The notes under the pieces: generated by a model
Told to the model about the DNA's origin: nothing
Database searches by the model: none
Seen by the model: the letters and a program-made list of their open reading frames with translations, nothing else
Made by a program: the position numbers and the translations under genes
Sequence record: OK272476.1
From: Escherichia phage JLBYU24
Direction: 5' to 3' (one strand)
DNA length: 64,000 bases
Shown: positions 13,061 to 34,666 of the stretch, piece after piece
Layout: the number at the start of each line of letters is the position of its first letter
How positions within the stretch are numbered: position 1 is the stretch's first letter

Positions 13061-13339
13061 TTATTCCTTAATTCCTAGTACTTGTTTAAAAGTCTCGTCG
13101 TAATCAAGACTTTGGCCCGTTTGTTCTTTATGTTTGTATATAATATCACTTACTTCTGATAGCATATTTTTGTATGAACGAGTTAAAGCAGATTTAAGCA
13201 CGCTGTATCTATCAGGAAATTTACCATGTTCATTATAATAAGCTATTGCTAATTCACGGACTGCCTTTTCAGCAGCCTCCATATATTCTTTACGCTTGGT
13301 CATTTTAATCCAAAATATTATTAGGCATTGGTTGAACAC
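13061..13339 (-). CDS. Hypothetical protein (start possibly Met at 13303)
   Basis: ORF track. Confidence 0.6.
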
Positions 13340-13694
13340 TCACAAGTTCTTTAAAGAACTCAGTAGAGTCAGGCAATTTAACCATTTCCGGAGCATGCTT
13401 ACTGAATTTATGTTTACATTGACGGCATTTATATTCAAGCTCTGGTTTACGCCAGTTAATCAATTGAACTTGTTCAGCACCGCATTCAGGGCAATTAGGA
13501 ACGTTTTTAGAAGCTCTTTCACGTCGTTCAACCATAGCCATAATAGCATCCCATGCTGGAGGTTTAAAATCTAAATCGTCGCAGCCATGAATCTTTCCAC
13601 GCATTTCCATATCATCTTCCTCACCAGCCATAATAATTTTAATTAAACTGGAATTACTTGAAGCTGCAATGTCTTCTAATAAACGCTTTTTCAT
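13305..13694 (-). CDS. Zinc-ribbon protein
   Basis: 129 aa, CPECG...CRQCKHKF four-Cys motif. Confidence 0.65.
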
Positions 13695-14620
13695 TTCAAT
13701 ACCTCAATAGCATTACGTAAACCATTTGCTTTTGCATTAAGAGCTTTTAACAATTTGGTGTGTTCGGCAATCTGGGCTTCAACTTCAATCAAACGAGCAT
13801 TGAGATATTCGCGTTCTTCGCTCAGATTATCAACCTTTTCTACTTTAGGCTCTTTTACAACTGTCTTATATGTATTAGGGTTCTTCAGTTTAATTAGAAT
13901 GCGTGAACTATATAACATTGAACCGTTATCTTCGGTTTCGTCATACATTTCTACTACGTCCATGATTTTTAACATCATGCGAAGTTTATAAGACAACGAA
14001 CGAATAGTTTTGTTGTGCTTATTAATTTCTTTAGCTGTCATGGTGCCGAGATTACGTGAGTAATAATAAGGAACCTGGATATTAATTAATACTGATGAAC
14101 CACCTGGCTTGTGTGTTACTTCATCAGCAATAACCCAGTCCTTAACGTGAACTGTATTTGTACGGTCATCGCCCGCGGTAAATAGTTTGCGAGCATGCTT
14201 AAAAAGCATATTCACTTGGTCATTGAATTGACAAGCAAATTTATCAGCAAAGTTAGTTTCAGGAATGGTAGATAACCAATCAGCCAAATGGGTCTTTTTA
14301 ACATCGTTAACAATAGTAAATTCAACCAAATCGGTTATAGATGTCTCAGATTTAATAAAGCTCGGCTTCATAAAGTTTTTAATGTTCTCACGAGCTACAG
14401 TAGAAGATAACATACGAGAACGTTTAAACCATTCAAGCAAATTGCCTAACGAATGAGAATAAGCGTTTTGAGTATCTTTACAGATATGATTTTCCTGACC
14501 AACATATTGAAGGAAATCACGAAGAATATTATTGATTACTGCTCTGTGCCCGATCTGATAATTACGGTGTTTAGTAATAAGACTGTCAAAATAATCAATA
14601 TAATGTTTACGAGTTTTCAT
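13691..14620 (-). CDS. Hypothetical protein with C-terminal coiled-coil tail (309 aa)
   Basis: ORF track; C-terminal heptad-like segment [42 protein letters not shown]. Confidence 0.7.
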   Translation of the reverse strand: MKTRKHYIDYFDSLITKHRNYQIGHRAVINNILRDFLQYVGQENHICKDTQNAYSHSLGNLLEWFKRSRMLSSTVARENIKNFMKPSFIKSETSITDLVEFTIVNDVKKTHLADWLSTIPETNFADKFACQFNDQVNMLFKHARKLFTAGDDRTNTVHVKDWVIADEVTHKPGGSSVLINIQVPYYYSRNLGTMTAKEINKHNKTIRSLSYKLRMMLKIMDVVEMYDETEDNGSMLYSSRILIKLKNPNTYKTVVKEPKVEKVDNLSEEREYLNARLIEVEAQIAEHTKLLKALNAKANGLRNAIEVLK

Positions 14621-14672
14621 ATTCTTCTCACTTGGTTAATGGTTTATACTCCGAGCCATCCTTGGCTTTAAA

Positions 14673-15674
14673 TTACTTAATTAACTGTAAAGCTTGTTCA
14701 AGACGATCAAGACGATTAACGGATTCTTCCCAAATCTTTTTAGCCTGCTCATATTCTTTCTGCGCTTTATTAGAAATTTCTAGAACTTCTTTATAAGCTT
14801 TTTCTAGTGCAATAACTTCTGGACGAATTTCTACCGGTTCAGGTGAATCGTCAAGATTATCCATTAGTTCCTCAAGGGTAGTTTCTTCTTTAGGAGTATT
14901 CACAATTTCCTCACATTTTTGTTGATAAATTTCTTTATCAGTAGGTGAATAAGCACATTTCACTTCACGAAGACTAATTACAATTTTATATCCTTCCCAT
15001 CCGCATATATTCTTAAAAGGATATGTATGAATATTTTCTACTGTTTCCATACAAAGTAATGCAGTCTCTAACTGACGAGTTATAGTGCTAGCAATTGAGA
15101 AAAATTTATTAATATTCTTTTGGTTAGTTTCTGGTGTAAAAAATCCATAATTCACAAAAATAGCTACTTTATTTTTATCAAGCTCATATTCTTTTACGAT
15201 AATCATATCAGAAGCCAAAGGATGAATTTGACGATAATCGCCATAACATAATTTAGAAGCTGATTTTAGAATTTGTCCTTTGAAAAGTCTGAAATTACTA
15301 ATCCAACGACGAGTAAAAATATTCTCAGGGTCTTCTTTATTATTAAGATGATAAGAATTAACATCACCGAACCAATTATATCCTACTACATCTTTAGTTC
15401 GTTTAATTTCTTTCCCAAAATTACCAAGAATATCCCGATTAACCAAATATGAAAGAAGACGAGACTCTTTAAAAGTTTTTTTGATAACATCTTTATCTAC
15501 ACGGCTAGAAATTTTACGAATTTCATGAATAAATTTAGTAGAAGAAACAATACTTGCATCAACACTATTGAGCCATTGATTGATAATAGAAAGAACGATA
15601 TTTTGACCAAACATCGGTATAGCTTTATCATCAATAACGCTATTGAATGATTTGATATATTCGTTACGAGTCAT
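14673..15674 (-). CDS. Hypothetical protein with C-terminal coiled-coil tail
   Basis: ORF 14673..15704 trimmed to Met at 15674 (MTRNEYIKSF, RBS GAGGAG) because the first 10 codons overlie a promoter; C-terminal coiled coil. Confidence 0.7.
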   Translation of the reverse strand: MTRNEYIKSFNSVIDDKAIPMFGQNIVLSIINQWLNSVDASIVSSTKFIHEIRKISSRVDKDVIKKTFKESRLLSYLVNRDILGNFGKEIKRTKDVVGYNWFGDVNSYHLNNKEDPENIFTRRWISNFRLFKGQILKSASKLCYGDYRQIHPLASDMIIVKEYELDKNKVAIFVNYGFFTPETNQKNINKFFSIASTITRQLETALLCMETVENIHTYPFKNICGWEGYKIVISLREVKCAYSPTDKEIYQQKCEEIVNTPKEETTLEELMDNLDDSPEPVEIRPEVIALEKAYKEVLEISNKAQKEYEQAKKIWEESVNRLDRLEQALQLIK

Positions 15675-15702
15675 ATTAATCTCCTCAGTAGAAAGTAAGA
15701 AC

Positions 15703-15732
15703 ATTATACCACATCCTTGTGGCGAAGTAAAC
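15703..15732 (-). promoter_or_regulatory. T4-type early promoter
   Basis: Minus strand GTTTAC (15727-15732), 18-nt spacer, tgTGgTATAAT (-10 at 15703-15708). Confidence 0.5.
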
Positions 15733-16736
15733 TAGTTTAGTGCATTTAGTGCGTTGTTCAATTTAGAACGTTGCTTCGTGAGATTTTTTACTTTTTCTTG
15801 AGCTTTTTCTAGCATCTTTTCAGCTTCTAACACTTCATTAGTTGCTTTAACGAGTTCATCATCTACTGCCTTGATAGACTTCTCAATCGCATCCGCGTGC
15901 CATTTTTCAACAGGTTTAAGACTCGGATTTTCAACAGGAAGAAAATTCACTTTATTGAATTTCCATGCATCATTATTACCTGAACTATACATCCAAAATT
16001 TAGGATCGTTTGATGAGTAATTAGTTTGGGGTTCAGGTTTTTTCTCTTGTGTAACTTCGTCCTTTCTCAAAAAATCATATTTAAATGAAACGATCATATC
16101 AAGTTCATATGTTGTCGTATCTAATTTAAATCGTTCGAAATGCTGCGAAATCTTAGACTGAACAGCAGAAACAACATCCATATACTTAAATGCTTCTGTC
16201 AGCTGTGATTTAAGACATTCACAAATTGAAAGAGAATTTTTAGTACTAGGTTTAAAGCTAATTCGTGCAGTTCTATTATTTTCTTTTAATGGTCTTACTT
16301 CCATCTGAAGAGTATAACCATCAAATTTCAGATTCTTTAAGTTAATATCAGAGCCCTTTAATCGACTAGCAGTAGACAAAATTTGCTTTAATTGTTTACG
16401 AAATAGAGCAATAAATCTCCATTCAATACGATAATGATTTGGATTAAAAAATCCTGTTGATAAATCAACCTTACTCTGACCAACGCCTTGAACAAATAGA
16501 GGATTTTTATAATCAATAGTTTTACAGAAATCGGTGAGCTGCTCACGAGCAGTCATTTGAGTAATATACCCTGCTTCATTAAAATGACGTAACCATTCAC
16601 TGCTATTCATATACTTAAAGTGAATATCACGATTAACTTTATCAGGGTCTAAATTATTTTGGCACAAAAATGTCATAACATTACGGGTATAGCTGGCATT
16701 ACGAACCATATCTTCAATTTGAGAACGAGTTTTCAT
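15732..16736 (-). CDS. Hypothetical protein with C-terminal coiled-coil tail (334 aa)
   Basis: ORF track; C-terminal LVKATNEVLEAEKMLEKAQEKVKNLTKQRSKLNNALNALN. Confidence 0.7.
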   Translation of the reverse strand: MKTRSQIEDMVRNASYTRNVMTFLCQNNLDPDKVNRDIHFKYMNSSEWLRHFNEAGYITQMTAREQLTDFCKTIDYKNPLFVQGVGQSKVDLSTGFFNPNHYRIEWRFIALFRKQLKQILSTASRLKGSDINLKNLKFDGYTLQMEVRPLKENNRTARISFKPSTKNSLSICECLKSQLTEAFKYMDVVSAVQSKISQHFERFKLDTTTYELDMIVSFKYDFLRKDEVTQEKKPEPQTNYSSNDPKFWMYSSGNNDAWKFNKVNFLPVENPSLKPVEKWHADAIEKSIKAVDDELVKATNEVLEAEKMLEKAQEKVKNLTKQRSKLNNALNALN

Positions 16737-16744
16737 AGTGTTCC

Positions 16745-17653
16745 TTAAGATTTAAGTAAATCAACAATTTTAATTAATTTTTCACGCTCAGATTTAGCTT
16801 TACTACTCAATCCAGATAGTCTGAAAATTTCATCGTCATACTGTTGAATAGAAATATTCAGCTCTTCAATTTGCTTATTAAAATAATCAATTTGCTCAGA
16901 ATGTTTTTCATTACTGCGAACTGGTACAGGTTTTGTAGGCAATTTAGTTAAACTGGATTCATCCGGGCGATAAATTAAAATACAACTTGAACCAATCGGG
17001 CATTTAGCACCAGACACATATTCTAATGTTCCGGCTTCTTTTAAAACTTCAAAAGCTAAACAGAGATGATGCCCCATATTAACATAATCTGTAGAGCGAG
17101 CTCTAATATAATAATCATCACCGCGAATACTAAATTTAAAGCATTTAAGGTCTTCTGTATTATTGGTCTTAAAAATCATTTGTTTATCTAGACCTTTAGC
17201 TAATCGAGCGCCTAATGCTAATAATCGTCGTTGATTTTCCCACAAATCCGCAATCATTTGGTCAAATGATAATTTCGGCATTAGTCGACCATAAAGGTCG
17301 TATCCTTTATTATAATTGCGAAGGATTTCACTCGCGTTAATACGAGACAATGCTCCAATTTTATTAAGGGCTTTCATAATGCGATTAGATAAACCCATTC
17401 CAGACCCGTTTGTTCGTTGTAAATGTTTATCTAATCCAAATCCAATATCAACTTTAAACTTATCTAAAATTTCTGCATGAACATCTCTGTCAATAACATT
17501 CAAATCCAAAGTTGGGTTAAATCTATGAAAAAATTTATCTGGCTCTCCACGACGAAGTACAGTCCATTCATTCAATTTTTTATTAACTAAAGATTTAATT
17601 ACTGCATTGACATTATTAATTACTACTGACATATTTTCCTCACTCAATTTCAA
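16745..17653 (-). CDS. Hypothetical protein with C-terminal coiled-coil tail (302 aa)
   Basis: ORF track; C-terminal QIDYFNKQIEELNISIQQYDDEIFRLSG...EREKLIKIVDLLKS. Confidence 0.7.
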   Translation of the reverse strand: MKLSEENMSVVINNVNAVIKSLVNKKLNEWTVLRRGEPDKFFHRFNPTLDLNVIDRDVHAEILDKFKVDIGFGLDKHLQRTNGSGMGLSNRIMKALNKIGALSRINASEILRNYNKGYDLYGRLMPKLSFDQMIADLWENQRRLLALGARLAKGLDKQMIFKTNNTEDLKCFKFSIRGDDYYIRARSTDYVNMGHHLCLAFEVLKEAGTLEYVSGAKCPIGSSCILIYRPDESSLTKLPTKPVPVRSNEKHSEQIDYFNKQIEELNISIQQYDDEIFRLSGLSSKAKSEREKLIKIVDLLKS

Positions 17654-18047
17654 TTTTACTAAATACGCAGAATATGATGGAAAAGACTATATAAGCACCG
17701 CATATAGATTGAACTAATACCATTCCAAAGAACCAAACAATATTATCAAACAATGTCTGTTTTACGTCGAAAGGACGTAAACTTACAGTAATATTATCAC
17801 CTTTTTCTATTGAAGAATACATCTCTGGAGAAATATATTCGCTAAATCTATAACCATCATTCAGCTCATATACAGCAATAAACGATAAACTAGACCCCTT
17901 TCCTTGTGTTCCTGTAAAGGTATTAACTACAGTAACATCATAATCTTTATAATGCATATAATCATTAATAGCATAATAACCATATGCAACTACTACGCAT
18001 AAACAACATATCAATAAATTCAATCTTTTAATTATCAACTGTTTCAT
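17640..18047 (-). CDS. Membrane protein (two predicted TM segments)
   Basis: 135 aa, hydrophobic N- and C-terminal spans. Confidence 0.65.
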   Translation of the reverse strand: MKQLIIKRLNLLICCLCVVVAYGYYAINDYMHYKDYDVTVVNTFTGTQGKGSSLSFIAVYELNDGYRFSEYISPEMYSSIEKGDNITVSLRPFDVKQTLFDNIVWFFGMVLVQSICGAYIVFSIIFCVFSKIEIE

Positions 18048-18102
18048 AATAATCTCAATTAAAAGGGCTTAGAACCATTATACCATCCTTGGTATAAAGC
18101 GG

Positions 18103-18630
18103 TTATGCGAGTACCGTCTTTAACCGTTCTTCAAACTTCCGAAGAGTATTTTGGCGTTCAGCTCTTTGCTTTTTGTAAGTTTCAATACGCTCTGAAATGA
18201 GAGTGTATCGTTCATTTACTGATTCTTTCATAAAATCAGGAATTTCACGAGAAGCTTTAATCTCGTCAAATTTATCAATAACAGCTTGCTCTTCAGCAAT
18301 TAAGTTATCATACATCAAAATATCTTTCTTGATGAACTCAATATCTTCTTGAGTTACACGAGATAATTTAGATGCTTTATCCTTTTTGTACTGTTCGTTA
18401 GTATCACGAGACCAGTGTAATGTACGATTTTTATTCGTATTCTTGTAAATTTCTACAATACCAATCTCATCAATAATAACGATCCAATTCCAACGGGATT
18501 TGTAAATTTGTCCTCCATCAACAGTGATTTCACCTCCAATTGAGATGTCATTAAAGAACTTGCTTTGTGCTTCTGATTTAAATTTACCATCGTTGTAATT
18601 TACCAGGTTGAAAATATCTTTAGCGTTCAT
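18103..18630 (-). CDS. Hypothetical protein (175 aa)
   Basis: ORF 18103..18690 trimmed to Met at 18630 (MNAKDIF, RBS GGAGG); upstream 20 codons overlie a promoter. Confidence 0.65.
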   Translation of the reverse strand: MNAKDIFNLVNYNDGKFKSEAQSKFFNDISIGGEITVDGGQIYKSRWNWIVIIDEIGIVEIYKNTNKNRTLHWSRDTNEQYKKDKASKLSRVTQEDIEFIKKDILMYDNLIAEEQAVIDKFDEIKASREIPDFMKESVNERYTLISERIETYKKQRAERQNTLRKFEERLKTVLA

Positions 18631-18658
18631 TTTCTGTTCCTCCGTAGTTGATAGTTGT

Positions 18659-18688
18659 ATAGTACCATGGAGGAACAGTCTTGTAAAC
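18659..18688 (-). promoter_or_regulatory. T4-type early promoter
   Basis: GTTTAC (18683-18688), 18-nt spacer, TACTAT (18659-18664); shares motif gttgatagttgtatagtaccatgg with 20351 and 35427. Confidence 0.55.
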
Positions 18689-18690
18689 AA

Positions 18691-19005
18691 CTAAAAGAAA
18701 CTTCTTTCACAATTTTTTCCACTGAACCACGCGCTCACTGCTTTCTTAGTCTCAGGAGCAGTGTTATCCATAAACCATTCAAAGGCAGCCTTTTTATGAT
18801 TCTGGAGGGCTTCTCGGGCTTTAATCTGCTCACGGTCTATTAACACTAACATATGAGCCTTTCTTGTCACCAAGGGCTTCTTATGATTCTTGGAGTATTC
18901 CCAATCATTTGTCCATCGCATCGTTGTTGCGAACTGAAATACTGCTTCTTTAATTTTAGTTTCGTAAATTTCACGAGCCTTTGAGTATAACATCACTACC
19001 TCCAT
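18691..19005 (-). CDS. Hypothetical protein
   Basis: ORF track. Confidence 0.6.
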   Translation of the reverse strand: MEVVMLYSKAREIYETKIKEAVFQFATTMRWTNDWEYSKNHKKPLVTRKAHMLVLIDREQIKAREALQNHKKAAFEWFMDNTAPETKKAVSAWFSGKNCERSFF

Positions 19006-19094
19006 TTACCAGTTTAATTCTAGTCATCTTTTTAATGGCAGTCCATATAATCTATTTCTGAACTGCCTTTTTGTCATAGAAGGCCTCTTATGAA

Positions 19095-20063
19095 TTATTT
19101 CAGAAGAGTAACCTCAGCAATTTCTTCCCAACCATTTTTGTCGGTCATAATAAAGTCAGCAAGATAAAGAGCAGTACGCAGTGAAACATTGCGTAAACGA
19201 TTAACATTGACTTTCATCCATGATAATGCTTTATAAGTTTCTTCATCAGAAAGACCACGCTTTTGCATCATGTCGGTTGAAAGAATAACATCTTCAACCC
19301 TGACCATAATTTCTTCATTAGTGTGAACACCCAAATCTAAATAAACCGAGCGGGAAACTAATGCTTGCAAATGTGGAGCAAGTTTAGTACCACGGTCTAA
19401 TTCGCGGTCAATGTCAACGTTTGTGATAAAAACAATCGTTCCTTTAAATTCAAACTCACGCTCAATGCCTTTTTCTTCTAAGTAAGAAGATGCAGTGCTC
19501 CAGCAGACTTTACGGGTCTCTCCAGTGTCCAGAGCAGCTTTCAAAAGATTAAGAATGTCCATATCAGAGAAAACATCCACATCATCAATCAAAAGGACAG
19601 AATTCTCTTCACGATTATTCCAGAGCTGTTCATAAAGACCGATACCAGAGATTTTACCGTTAATGCTTTTATATTCAATGTATCCAATATCATTTGCTTT
19701 ATTTAAAGCTTTATCTAAAGAATACGTTTTACCAATGCCTGCCGCACCAGAGATAATTAATGAACGAATGTTTCCGTTAATAATACCATTCGTCATCATT
19801 CCCATAACATTAAATCTTTTATTAATGCGGGTTTTCATATCTTCATATGATTCTTTAACTTCTTCAACTTTTACACCATCATATGAAATGTCTGATTTGT
19901 AAACCCAAACACCGCGACGCTTACCGTCAATTTCAACAAAAACTTTACCATCTCCTTGTGCATCTACCGGAGCATTATCTGGGAACCATTCGCCTAAGAG
20001 CTCAAAAGTTCCAGAGATTTCTTTACCGAAGTAGATACCCTTATTGATAGTTACAGTTTTCAT
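19095..20063 (-). CDS. P-loop ATPase (AAA-like)
   Basis: 322 aa, Walker A SGAAGIGKT, Walker B VLLIDDVD, ~100-aa N-terminal domain. Confidence 0.75.
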   Translation of the reverse strand: MKTVTINKGIYFGKEISGTFELLGEWFPDNAPVDAQGDGKVFVEIDGKRRGVWVYKSDISYDGVKVEEVKESYEDMKTRINKRFNVMGMMTNGIINGNIRSLIISGAAGIGKTYSLDKALNKANDIGYIEYKSINGKISGIGLYEQLWNNREENSVLLIDDVDVFSDMDILNLLKAALDTGETRKVCWSTASSYLEEKGIEREFEFKGTIVFITNVDIDRELDRGTKLAPHLQALVSRSVYLDLGVHTNEEIMVRVEDVILSTDMMQKRGLSDEETYKALSWMKVNVNRLRNVSLRTALYLADFIMTDKNGWEEIAEVTLLK

Positions 20064-20439: not shown

Positions 20440-21453
20440 TCATTTATAATAACTTCGGTGGTTTTCAAGATAGACCTTCTCAAGGAAGTCATCCCAGAAA
20501 CTCATGTCTACTGTTTTAGGCATACCGTTCTTAGAAGCTTCAGTAGATGCTGCTTCTACTTGATCGACCACATCTTCCAAAAACTCTTGAACTGTTTTAA
20601 ATGGATGTTTACCCAACTTCACGTCGAGAATAAATGGAGCATCTTGAAGTGGATAGACTAAGTCACCAGTTTTGTAAATTTCCAATAGTTGGAGTCCACC
20701 ACGACAAGCATGACTTAGTGCTTTCCAATCAATGCCTTCATTGGCTTCGGCCTTACGAGCACGTTCACCGTATTCAGCATCTAATTTGTTCAGTGACTGC
20801 TTAAGCTCAATAAGAGAAAGCGTTGTCTGATATTTACGACCCAACACGGTGTAGAACGTTTGTGGGCCTGTTTTCTCATGATTATGGAACACCCATTCAC
20901 AGAATTCGTTTTCTGGAAGACGATGCTTAATATCTTCAACTTTAGTGCGACGCTGCTTAATAGAACCATCTTCTTGGTAATCAATCCACTGCTCAGGGAT
21001 TTGATTAACTACTTTCAATACATCACGTAATGCAGCCAAACGAGAACCTTTAACACCGTATTTAGAAGCTTGCTTGCGGACATATCCTAAATATGATTTC
21101 ATGTTAGTCGTATAAAAACGAGAACGGTTGTCTTGAATAAACTTCCACACATCAGGCAAATCAGATTTAACTACTAGTTCAGGTGGAGTGTGGAGCATAT
21201 CCAATGCTACAGTTTCACCATCTGCTGCTAATTTAAAGAAATATTTAAGACTGTATAGTTCATGGTCAATATCATCTTTAGTGTTTTTAGATGATGTGTT
21301 GTTAGTGTTTTTGCTCATATGCTCTTTAACGTTTCCGATAAGAATATCACGAGCAGGAGGAACAAAGATTTCTTTAAAATCTACATCAGATTCTGGGGTA
21401 GAAGTTCCATAAAGATGACTACCAAAATAGCTTTTCATTACTGTTTTCATCAT
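20440..21453 (-). CDS. Predicted Pol-beta-superfamily nucleotidyltransferase
   Basis: 337 aa; N-terminal G-S-x9-D-x-D motif (YFGSHLYGTSTPESDVDF); start overlaps upstream membrane-protein stop (ATGA). Confidence 0.7.
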   Translation of the reverse strand: MMKTVMKSYFGSHLYGTSTPESDVDFKEIFVPPARDILIGNVKEHMSKNTNNTSSKNTKDDIDHELYSLKYFFKLAADGETVALDMLHTPPELVVKSDLPDVWKFIQDNRSRFYTTNMKSYLGYVRKQASKYGVKGSRLAALRDVLKVVNQIPEQWIDYQEDGSIKQRRTKVEDIKHRLPENEFCEWVFHNHEKTGPQTFYTVLGRKYQTTLSLIELKQSLNKLDAEYGERARKAEANEGIDWKALSHACRGGLQLLEIYKTGDLVYPLQDAPFILDVKLGKHPFKTVQEFLEDVVDQVEAASTEASKNGMPKTVDMSFWDDFLEKVYLENHRSYYK

Positions 21454-34072: not shown

Positions 34073-34666
34073 TTATTTCAGAGAATTAATATATTCCTGG
34101 ACATCGGCAGAGGTAGTTTCAACCCCAGAAATATTGCCATTAAAGGTTTCAACTCGGGCAAGAGTATCTTCAATATCAACCTTAGTCAGCGCTGCAATTT
34201 CAACTACATCATCAGCAGTACTAATTCCAAGTGCATTTGCGGCGCGAGTTTCACGGATATATTCCAATTTAACCGCAAGTTCTTGACGAGCATCATCCAA
34301 TTCAACTACTTTCTTGGCGATTTCAATTCGCATTTCAGCATAACCATCAGCTTTAGTAGTCAACTGTTCAGCTGTTCGACGATATAGCAAGCCGAGTTTA
34401 GCATGCATTGTTACATCTTGACCTTCAGAAAGAAGCTTGCGAATTTCACGCTCTTTTGATTCGGCCTGCTTATTCTTTTCGACAATAAGTTCACGAATAC
34501 GCTTTTCTTCATTAATAGATTTAACAGAAGCAGTTTTTAGATCTTTAATCTTATCAAGTAGTTTTGCTGCCGCAGCAGTATACTGTTCTTCAACAGATAG
34601 ATTTTTAGCCATAGCAGAACCAAGTTTAGTGCGAATAAACTCAACAATTTTCTTCAGCATGTTCAT
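34073..34666 (-). CDS. Coiled-coil protein (PspA-like, low confidence)
   Basis: 197 aa, almost entirely helical/charged heptad-like sequence. Confidence 0.6.

Follow-up and report, generated by a model that had tools for sequence, protein, structure and literature searches.

The 64,000-nucleotide stretch of Escherichia phage JLBYU24 analysed here (sequence record OK272476.1; hereafter the window) belongs to a T4-like phage of the genus Tequatrovirus and contains four consecutive minus-strand open reading frames (ORFs), which are orthologs of the T4 genes nrdC.3, nrdC.4, nrdC.5 and nrdC.6. A sequence-only reading of the window had earlier drawn attention to these ORFs because of their similar size and Lys/Glu-rich C-terminal tails. 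We propose, with moderate confidence, that NrdC.3-6 represent a tandem array of diverged paralogs, confined to T4-like phages, whose products would act early in infection by binding host immune proteins and inhibiting them stoichiometrically. The homology of NrdC.3, NrdC.4 and NrdC.5 appears secure from profile comparisons that extend from end to end, while NrdC.6 is likely a more distant relative of these three, as suggested by HHalign, by the topology of AlphaFold2 (AF2) models and by common Foldseek matches.

The functional part of this proposal starts from NrdC.5. Srikant, Guegler and Laub (eLife 2022, PMC9391042) found that a T4 clone without a block of accessory genes failed to plate on ECOR17, and likewise on MG1655 carrying ECOR17 dsr1, and that expression of nrdC.5 alone restored plating. 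The window NrdC.5 is the ortholog of this anti-Dsr1 protein (DUF7235) and occupies the same locus; NrdC.3, NrdC.4 and NrdC.6 differ from it in belonging to PF26897 and PF26899 and in having no reported function. The statement of the sequence-only reading that no function can be read from sequence has thus to be revised, as orthology to T4 nrdC.5 supplies an experimentally shown function for one member, and the published activity agrees with its guess of 'specificity or decoy modules'. Other reports bear on the same region. The neighbouring nrdC.1 encodes a Septu inhibitor (2025 preprint 10.1101/2025.11.20.689424), the nrdC.1-6 block can be deleted from T4 in a laboratory host (genome-reduction study, PMC9825161), and Dsr1 responds through its TPR sensor to a phage major capsid protein (2026 preprint PMC12803255). 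We take this trigger to be a late gene product.

We therefore envisage NrdC.3-6 as proteins that would be made early in infection, with NrdC.5 occupying or locking the SIR2-TPR NADase Dsr1 before the late capsid trigger appears. NrdC.3, NrdC.4 and NrdC.6 would be duplicates that have acquired new targets, either other defence proteins or variants of Dsr1, and the C-terminal helix could add avidity through paralog-specific homo-oligomerisation. Anti-defence roles are predicted for these three proteins because NrdC.3-6 can be unified as one superfamily; direct binding by all four and oligomerisation through their tails are what we infer for the mode of action. A binder rather than an enzyme is suggested by three negative results: no significant match to an enzyme family (or to a DNA- or RNA-binding family) was obtained, sequence searches of the PDB returned no solved homolog, and no invariant residues of catalytic type were seen across the superfamily in the joint alignment of NrdC.3, NrdC.4 and NrdC.5.

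Pairwise comparison reveals little of the relationship among the four proteins. In BLASTP, NrdC.3 and NrdC.4 share 25% identity (E 4e-6) and no other pair reaches significance, in agreement with the earlier observation that the N-terminal parts are only weakly similar, and PHROGs and Pfam place the four proteins in three families. We therefore compared, by HHalign, family alignments built from 20 loci of five genera (A, B, C and D denote the window copies of NrdC.3, NrdC.4, NrdC.5 and NrdC.6). The NrdC.3 and NrdC.4 families match with a probability of 97.5% (E 8e-12), and a combined NrdC.3/4 profile matches NrdC.5 (probability 70%, E 4e-5) over 236 collinear columns that end exactly at the C-termini. 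An expanded A/B/C profile in turn matches the NrdC.6 family over 69 columns of the core, outside the tail (probability 80%, E 1.4e-5). As these matches reach from NrdC.3 to NrdC.6, the repeated architecture reflects common descent and not chance. The joint A/B/C alignment contains an invariant N-terminal M(K)TR, several motifs in the middle of the proteins and a terminal L..A[LI]..L[KN]. Positions 3-4 (M-K-T-R or M-T-R) hold T and R without exception in NrdC.3, NrdC.4 and NrdC.5 of all genera, a feature absent in NrdC.6. T4 capsid-targeting sequences carry an (L/I)xE cleavage motif; this motif is absent from the N-termini in question, and the N-terminal MKT was accordingly rejected as a capsid-targeting sequence. 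To our knowledge, T4 head proteomes do not include NrdC.3-NrdC.6.

Structure models were made for NrdC.4 and NrdC.6, the two most distant members, and their folds were compared by the order of secondary-structure elements and by Foldseek matches. These two were modelled rather than NrdC.5 because the depth of the multiple sequence alignment was limited by the homolog search; the mixed A/B/C search missed many Tequatrovirus NrdC.3/4 proteins and the VR7-type NrdC.5. The NrdC.4 model (predicted local distance difference test, pLDDT, 75.9) consists of a helical bundle (residues 1-84), a beta-hairpin (88-101), a helix (116-140), strands (158-178), a helix (185-208), further strands (212-235), a disordered acidic linker (239-283) and a C-terminal helix (285-332). 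The elements of the NrdC.6 model (pLDDT 78.5) follow the same order, both models showing a helical bundle, a long helix, a beta-hairpin, a helix, a second beta-hairpin, a linker of low confidence and a C-terminal helix. When compared with BFVD by Foldseek, both models matched Enterobacter phage IME523 A0A7G3KGN9 (E 1.4e-6 for NrdC.4, 5.4e-7 for NrdC.6), as well as full-length proteins of Yersinia phage fHe-Yen9-01 and Serratia phage CBH8, and the NrdC.4 model additionally matched NrdC.3 of phage fPS-65 (E 6.7e-9). Neither unrelated folds nor non-helical C-termini, which the sequence-only reading had named as evidence against itself, were seen in the two models.

Profile similarity outside the tail together with a common fold, which we took as the mark of a superfamily, was thus found for NrdC.3-6, the link to NrdC.6 being the weakest. 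The architecture common to all four comprises a variable helical bundle at the N-terminus, a two-layer alpha/beta core of the order alpha-beta-beta-alpha-beta-beta, a flexible linker and an amphipathic C-terminal helix of 47-58 residues with heptad periodicity. None of the published work cited here on the nrdC genes or on Dsr1 treats NrdC.3-6 as a family, and the union of three Pfam/PHROG families in one superfamily appears to be new.

The C-terminal tails were examined with a simple, admittedly crude heptad scan, in which 200 shuffles of each protein served as control and a coiled coil was taken to require a minimum of four heptads in a row, with a hydrophobic a/d seam, within a predicted helix. 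Heptads were significant against the shuffles in NrdC.3, NrdC.5 and NrdC.6 and borderline in NrdC.4 (score 0.62, p 0.08). The register is unbroken over residues 259-309 of NrdC.3 (51 residues) and 277-334 of NrdC.5 (58 residues, score 0.78), and it covers residues 249-282 of NrdC.6 in a 302-residue numbering (34 residues); in each of the three proteins, 0 of 200 shuffles reached the observed maximum. AF2 predicts a long C-terminal helix in NrdC.4 and, in NrdC.6, helices at 242-271 and 277-294, with a pLDDT of about 80-90 in these segments. Charged residues make up a fraction of 0.32-0.40 of the tails as compared with 0.25 of the cores, and the weak Pfam matches within the tails are to coiled-coil families only. 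Such tails are uncommon in the window, as a C-terminal heptad segment was detected in five of its 52 ORFs of at least 150 amino acids (aa): NrdC.3, NrdC.5, NrdC.6, the coiled-coil protein fibritin, which served as positive control, and one other. This fifth ORF (34073-34666, minus strand, 197 aa, score 0.68) matches phrog_1203, a family of unknown function.

The scan and the AF2 helices thus bear out the heptad-like tails described in the sequence-only reading, of which the quoted peptide is the C-terminus of NrdC.5, the third ORF; their length is 47-58 residues and exceeds the approximately 40 given there. By contrast, its notion of a common oligomerisation tail is not borne out. Between paralogs the tails are 12-24% identical and have only the terminal L..A[LI]..L[KN] motif in common, whereas among orthologs no other segment is as well conserved as the tail. 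For NrdC.4, identity across genera amounts to 58-68% in the tail and 22-45% in the core (64% and 22% in the NrdC.4-lineage protein P0180), and the genera retain the NrdC.6 tail motif DDEIFRLSGL..KAK.ER.K...LLK unchanged. Each paralog thus has a tail of its own and the array has none in common, a pattern which argues for paralog-specific self-association or partners rather than a shared tail. Most likely, the C-terminal helix would form a paralog-specific homo-oligomeric coiled coil.

Two further proteins show tails of related appearance. NrdC.8 (18103-18630, 175 aa) ends in a charged tail of helical appearance (...QRAERQNTLRKFEERLKTVLA), whose heptad score of 0.60 is borderline; homology to NrdC.3-NrdC.6 was undetected by HHalign, and a paper on DRT1 names nrdC.8 as one of the T4 genes that are downregulated when cells express DRT1. 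P0071, a protein of 173 aa from an 803-bp ENA contig, carries an unrelated head of 120 residues, for which no match was found within the phage collection, on a tail 100% identical to that of NrdC.5, and reflects either genuine shuffling of tails or a chimeric assembly.

The distribution of the family is narrow. With the A/B/C profile, a full HMMER scan over 1.84 billion representative proteins recovered only 20, which indicates that there are no remote cellular homologs at the sequence level. Searched by tblastn against 50,697 phage records, each of the four proteins found matches in 553-741 records, mostly named Escherichia, Shigella, Yersinia, Salmonella or Citrobacter phages, or Tequatrovirus, and every locus inspected was that of a T4-like phage. 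In every genus inspected, the family members lie upstream of nrdC in the same neighbourhood, and in the multi-copy genera the array directly adjoins nrdC.2. Copy number varies from a single member in Kanagawavirus (IME523) and Marfavirus (F48) to three in Gaprivervirus (VR7) and Dhakavirus (Bp7), namely of the NrdC.4, NrdC.5 and NrdC.6 types, three in Mosigvirus (HX01), of the NrdC.6, NrdC.5 and NrdC.3 types, and four in Tequatrovirus. The single Marfavirus member, gp57 of Klebsiella phage F48 (L020:4501-5448), matches the hidden Markov model (HMM) of NrdC.4 in its core, but for its tail the NrdC.5 HMM is by far the better match (40 bits); this protein may be either an ancestral-like state or a mosaic.

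Individual members also show traces of exchange and loss. Residues 1-80 of the window NrdC.3 are T4-like (88-91% identity), while residues 81-280 are 92-100% identical to gp097 of Mosigvirus HX01 and 38-58% identical to T4; judged by these identities, the window NrdC.3 is a recombinant, the product of a cassette exchange between genera. Across 653 phage records, NrdC.3 falls into allele classes of 60% and more than 90% identity to the window copy. In the T4 reference sequence (NC_000866; L002:8990-9894), nrdC.6 has suffered a one-base deletion (GCTGAAT to GCTG-AT), which frameshifts the last ~36 codons and leaves an annotated protein of 275 aa without the coiled-coil tail; the DNA downstream of the frameshift still encodes the tail in another frame. 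In P0057 (299 aa; longest contig 167 kb), the middle of NrdC.5 continues into the C-terminal two-thirds of NrdC.3, the junction being a short ..KVN/..QVN common to both, a natural nrdC.5::nrdC.3 fusion in which nrdC.4 has been removed by deletion. Copy numbers of 1-4, the mosaic NrdC.3, the allele classes, the fusion and the frameshift may together be regarded as signatures of an arms race. The copy numbers and the mosaic NrdC.3, together with the paralogy, also agree with the repeated architecture, divergent heads and diversifying family of the sequence-only reading.

Several points weigh against NrdC.3-6 as binding inhibitors of host immune proteins. Among the four proteins experimental support exists for NrdC.5 only, and the searchable literature yielded no account of NrdC.5 binding or mechanism. 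The statistics that connect NrdC.6 with NrdC.3/4/5 are moderate, and the models come from NrdC.4 and NrdC.6 and are of moderate confidence (pLDDT 76-78). HMM matches of the IME523 member (IME523_085) to NrdC.5 and NrdC.6 run largely through the coiled-coil tail, and since composition can inflate such scores, this protein was downgraded as a bridge between the two. Finally, NrdC.3, NrdC.5 and NrdC.6 are strongly basic, with an isoelectric point of about 9.2 and a net charge of +9 to +10, which would also suit the binding of nucleic acids. This keeps alive an explanation in which NrdC.3-6 are basic nucleic-acid-binding proteins of host takeover or genome protection and the rescue from Dsr1 is indirect, e.g. 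through a change in the timing or amount of the trigger. We consider this explanation unlikely: NrdC.4 is neutral and its linker has a charge of -9, significant matches to DNA- or RNA-binding families are lacking, the genes are dispensable in a laboratory host, and rapid allelic turnover is more typical of proteins that face variable host targets. A shade less likely still, the array could encode early mimics of virion proteins with a tail-terminator-like sandwich as their alpha/beta core. Each paralog would then pre-load and block the sensor of a different pattern-recognition defence protein, such as the capsid-sensing TPR domain of Dsr1/Avs7-type proteins, and the paralog-specific coiled-coil tail would set an oligomeric state matching that of an oligomeric sensor. 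Among known systems, the tail terminator and tail completion proteins of phages (lambda gpU, T5 p142, Mu, SPP1 gp17-like, pyocin collar) were considered in this context. HHalign comparisons with the phage's own tail terminators, gp3 and gp15, were negative. If true, such mimicry would constitute a general 'decoy ligand' strategy against immunity that senses structural proteins.

More doubtful than either is the idea that the four proteins are subunits of a single hetero-oligomeric complex, assembled through the coiled-coil tails and serving one early function, which corresponds to the common oligomerisation tail of the sequence-only reading. Adjacent, co-oriented genes and four helical heptad tails with a similar L..A[LI]..L[KN] end would be expected of such a complex, but nrdC.5 alone complements the Dsr1 phenotype, some related phages have a single member and others three, the frameshift has deprived the T4 reference strain of the NrdC.6 tail, and the tails differ strongly between paralogs while each is conserved in its own lineage. 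The most improbable alternative is that four unrelated genes lie together by chance and that their tails are convergent low-complexity sequence. A BLASTP signal restricted to NrdC.3-NrdC.4 and the three Pfam and PHROG families for four proteins would speak for it; the profile-profile matches run, however, through the non-tail core, the F48 protein without its tail still matches the NrdC.4 family, and the NrdC.4 and NrdC.6 models are alike in element order and have Foldseek matches in common, so that this alternative can be regarded as largely refuted already.

The array is flanked by nrdC, nrdC.1 and nrdC.2 on one side and by nrdC.7-nrdC.11 on the other, and the surrounding 5.7 kb show 97-98% identity to many Tequatrovirus genomes, the top match being Shigella phage Sf23. 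Orthologs were assigned from the T4 reference annotation and by BLASTP. Four consecutive co-oriented ORFs had been reported from the sequence alone and are present, the first three with correct coordinates (see the table). The fourth had been drawn as 16745..17653, with an incorrect end: its start is the ATG at 17632, which follows GAGTGAGGAAAAT and has a good Shine-Dalgarno sequence. The TTG at 17653 was rejected as the start of an over-extended ORF that overlaps the end of the upstream gene. A promoter-like site is situated in the intergenic spacer between nrdC.5 and nrdC.4, ahead of nrdC.4, and is followed by the Shine-Dalgarno sequence GAGGAG. With regard to existing families, phrog_1435 matches both NrdC.3 (E 1e-115) and NrdC.4 (E 1.9e-169), and the label PF26897 applies to these two by proxy, as it was precomputed on NrdC.4 homologs at 39-46% identity. 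NrdC.5 belongs to phrog_2351 and is matched over its full length by PF23882 (DUF7235) with 386.7 bits (cut-off 30); it is the sole member of this family among the four, PF23882 having no match in NrdC.3, NrdC.4 or NrdC.6. NrdC.6 is matched by phrog_2257 (E 2.3e-152), and PF26899 is carried by homologs at 96-99% identity.

Table. Genes of the nrdC.3-nrdC.6 array, their C-terminal tails and a promoter-like site, in window coordinates
Feature	Position	Strand	Description
NrdC.3 ortholog (A)	13691..14620	-	309 aa; 60% identity to T4 NrdC.3
NrdC.4 ortholog (B)	14673..15674	-	333 aa; 97% identity to T4 NrdC.4
NrdC.5 ortholog (C)	15732..16736	-	334 aa; 90% identity to T4 NrdC.5
NrdC.6 ortholog (D)	16745..17632	-	295 aa; 96.5% identity to T4 NrdC.6 over 259 aa
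NrdC.3 tail, aa 263-309	13694..13834	-	helical/heptad; heptad scan
NrdC.4 tail, aa 284-333	14676..14825	-	AF2 helix; borderline heptad
NrdC.5 tail, aa 277-334	15735..15908	-	heptad scan; weak coiled-coil Pfam matches
NrdC.6 tail, aa 242-295	16748..16909	-	helix-break-helix, AF2; heptad segment
T4-early-type promoter-like site	15703..15732	-	GTTTAC, 17 nt, TGgTATAAT; putative function, from consensus match

Some of the flanking genes deserve mention. NrdC.2 (13305-13694, 129 aa), a zinc-ribbon protein (CPEC...CRQC), abuts the array; its C-terminus is 25 residues longer than that of T4 NrdC.2 (104 aa), to which it is 77% identical, and it represents another variable gene. On the other side of the array (window 19095-20063 and 20440-21453), NrdC.10 shows sub-threshold matches of P-loop, AAA and STAND-like type, and NrdC.11 is a nucleotidyltransferase (phrog_388). 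The two genes share the non-essential early region with the array and may be additional candidates for counter-defence.

In GenBank records, homologs of nrdC.3-nrdC.10 (window 13691-20063) often carry the label 'thioredoxin'. None of NrdC.3-NrdC.6 has a match to a thioredoxin-family Pfam entry, no CxxC active site is present in the four translations, and the models of NrdC.4 and NrdC.6 show a fold other than thioredoxin. The label was apparently carried over from the gene names, and the present analysis corrects a common mis-annotation of nrdC.3-nrdC.6.

Among known systems, DSAD1 of an SPbeta-like phage is a functional analogue of NrdC.5, as it blocks a SIR2 NADase equipped with a sensor for a virion protein. 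DSAD1 acts by binding DSR2, and its likeness to NrdC.5 lies in function. DSR2 and Dsr1 themselves differ in their sensor domains and in their triggers, which are the tail tube for DSR2 and the major capsid protein for Dsr1. With regard to genomic organisation, the array resembles the dmd-tifA-adfA 'anti-TA (toxin-antitoxin) island' and the ipI/ipII/ipIII internal-protein slot, hyperplastic anti-defence loci of T-even phages, which likewise are non-essential variable blocks with alternative genes in one syntenic slot and in which each occupant counters a specific host defence. These loci hold unrelated genes, whereas the nrdC.3-6 slot holds paralogs and would have arisen by tandem expansion.

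NrdC.3-6 are known T4 genes, and the function of NrdC.5 has already been published. Although no phage has been studied better than T4, three of the four genes lack an assigned function, and for the fourth there is a phenotype but no mechanism. The union of all four in one superfamily suggests a route by which phages may reach inhibitor diversity, namely tandem duplication combined with the exchange of cassettes between genera.

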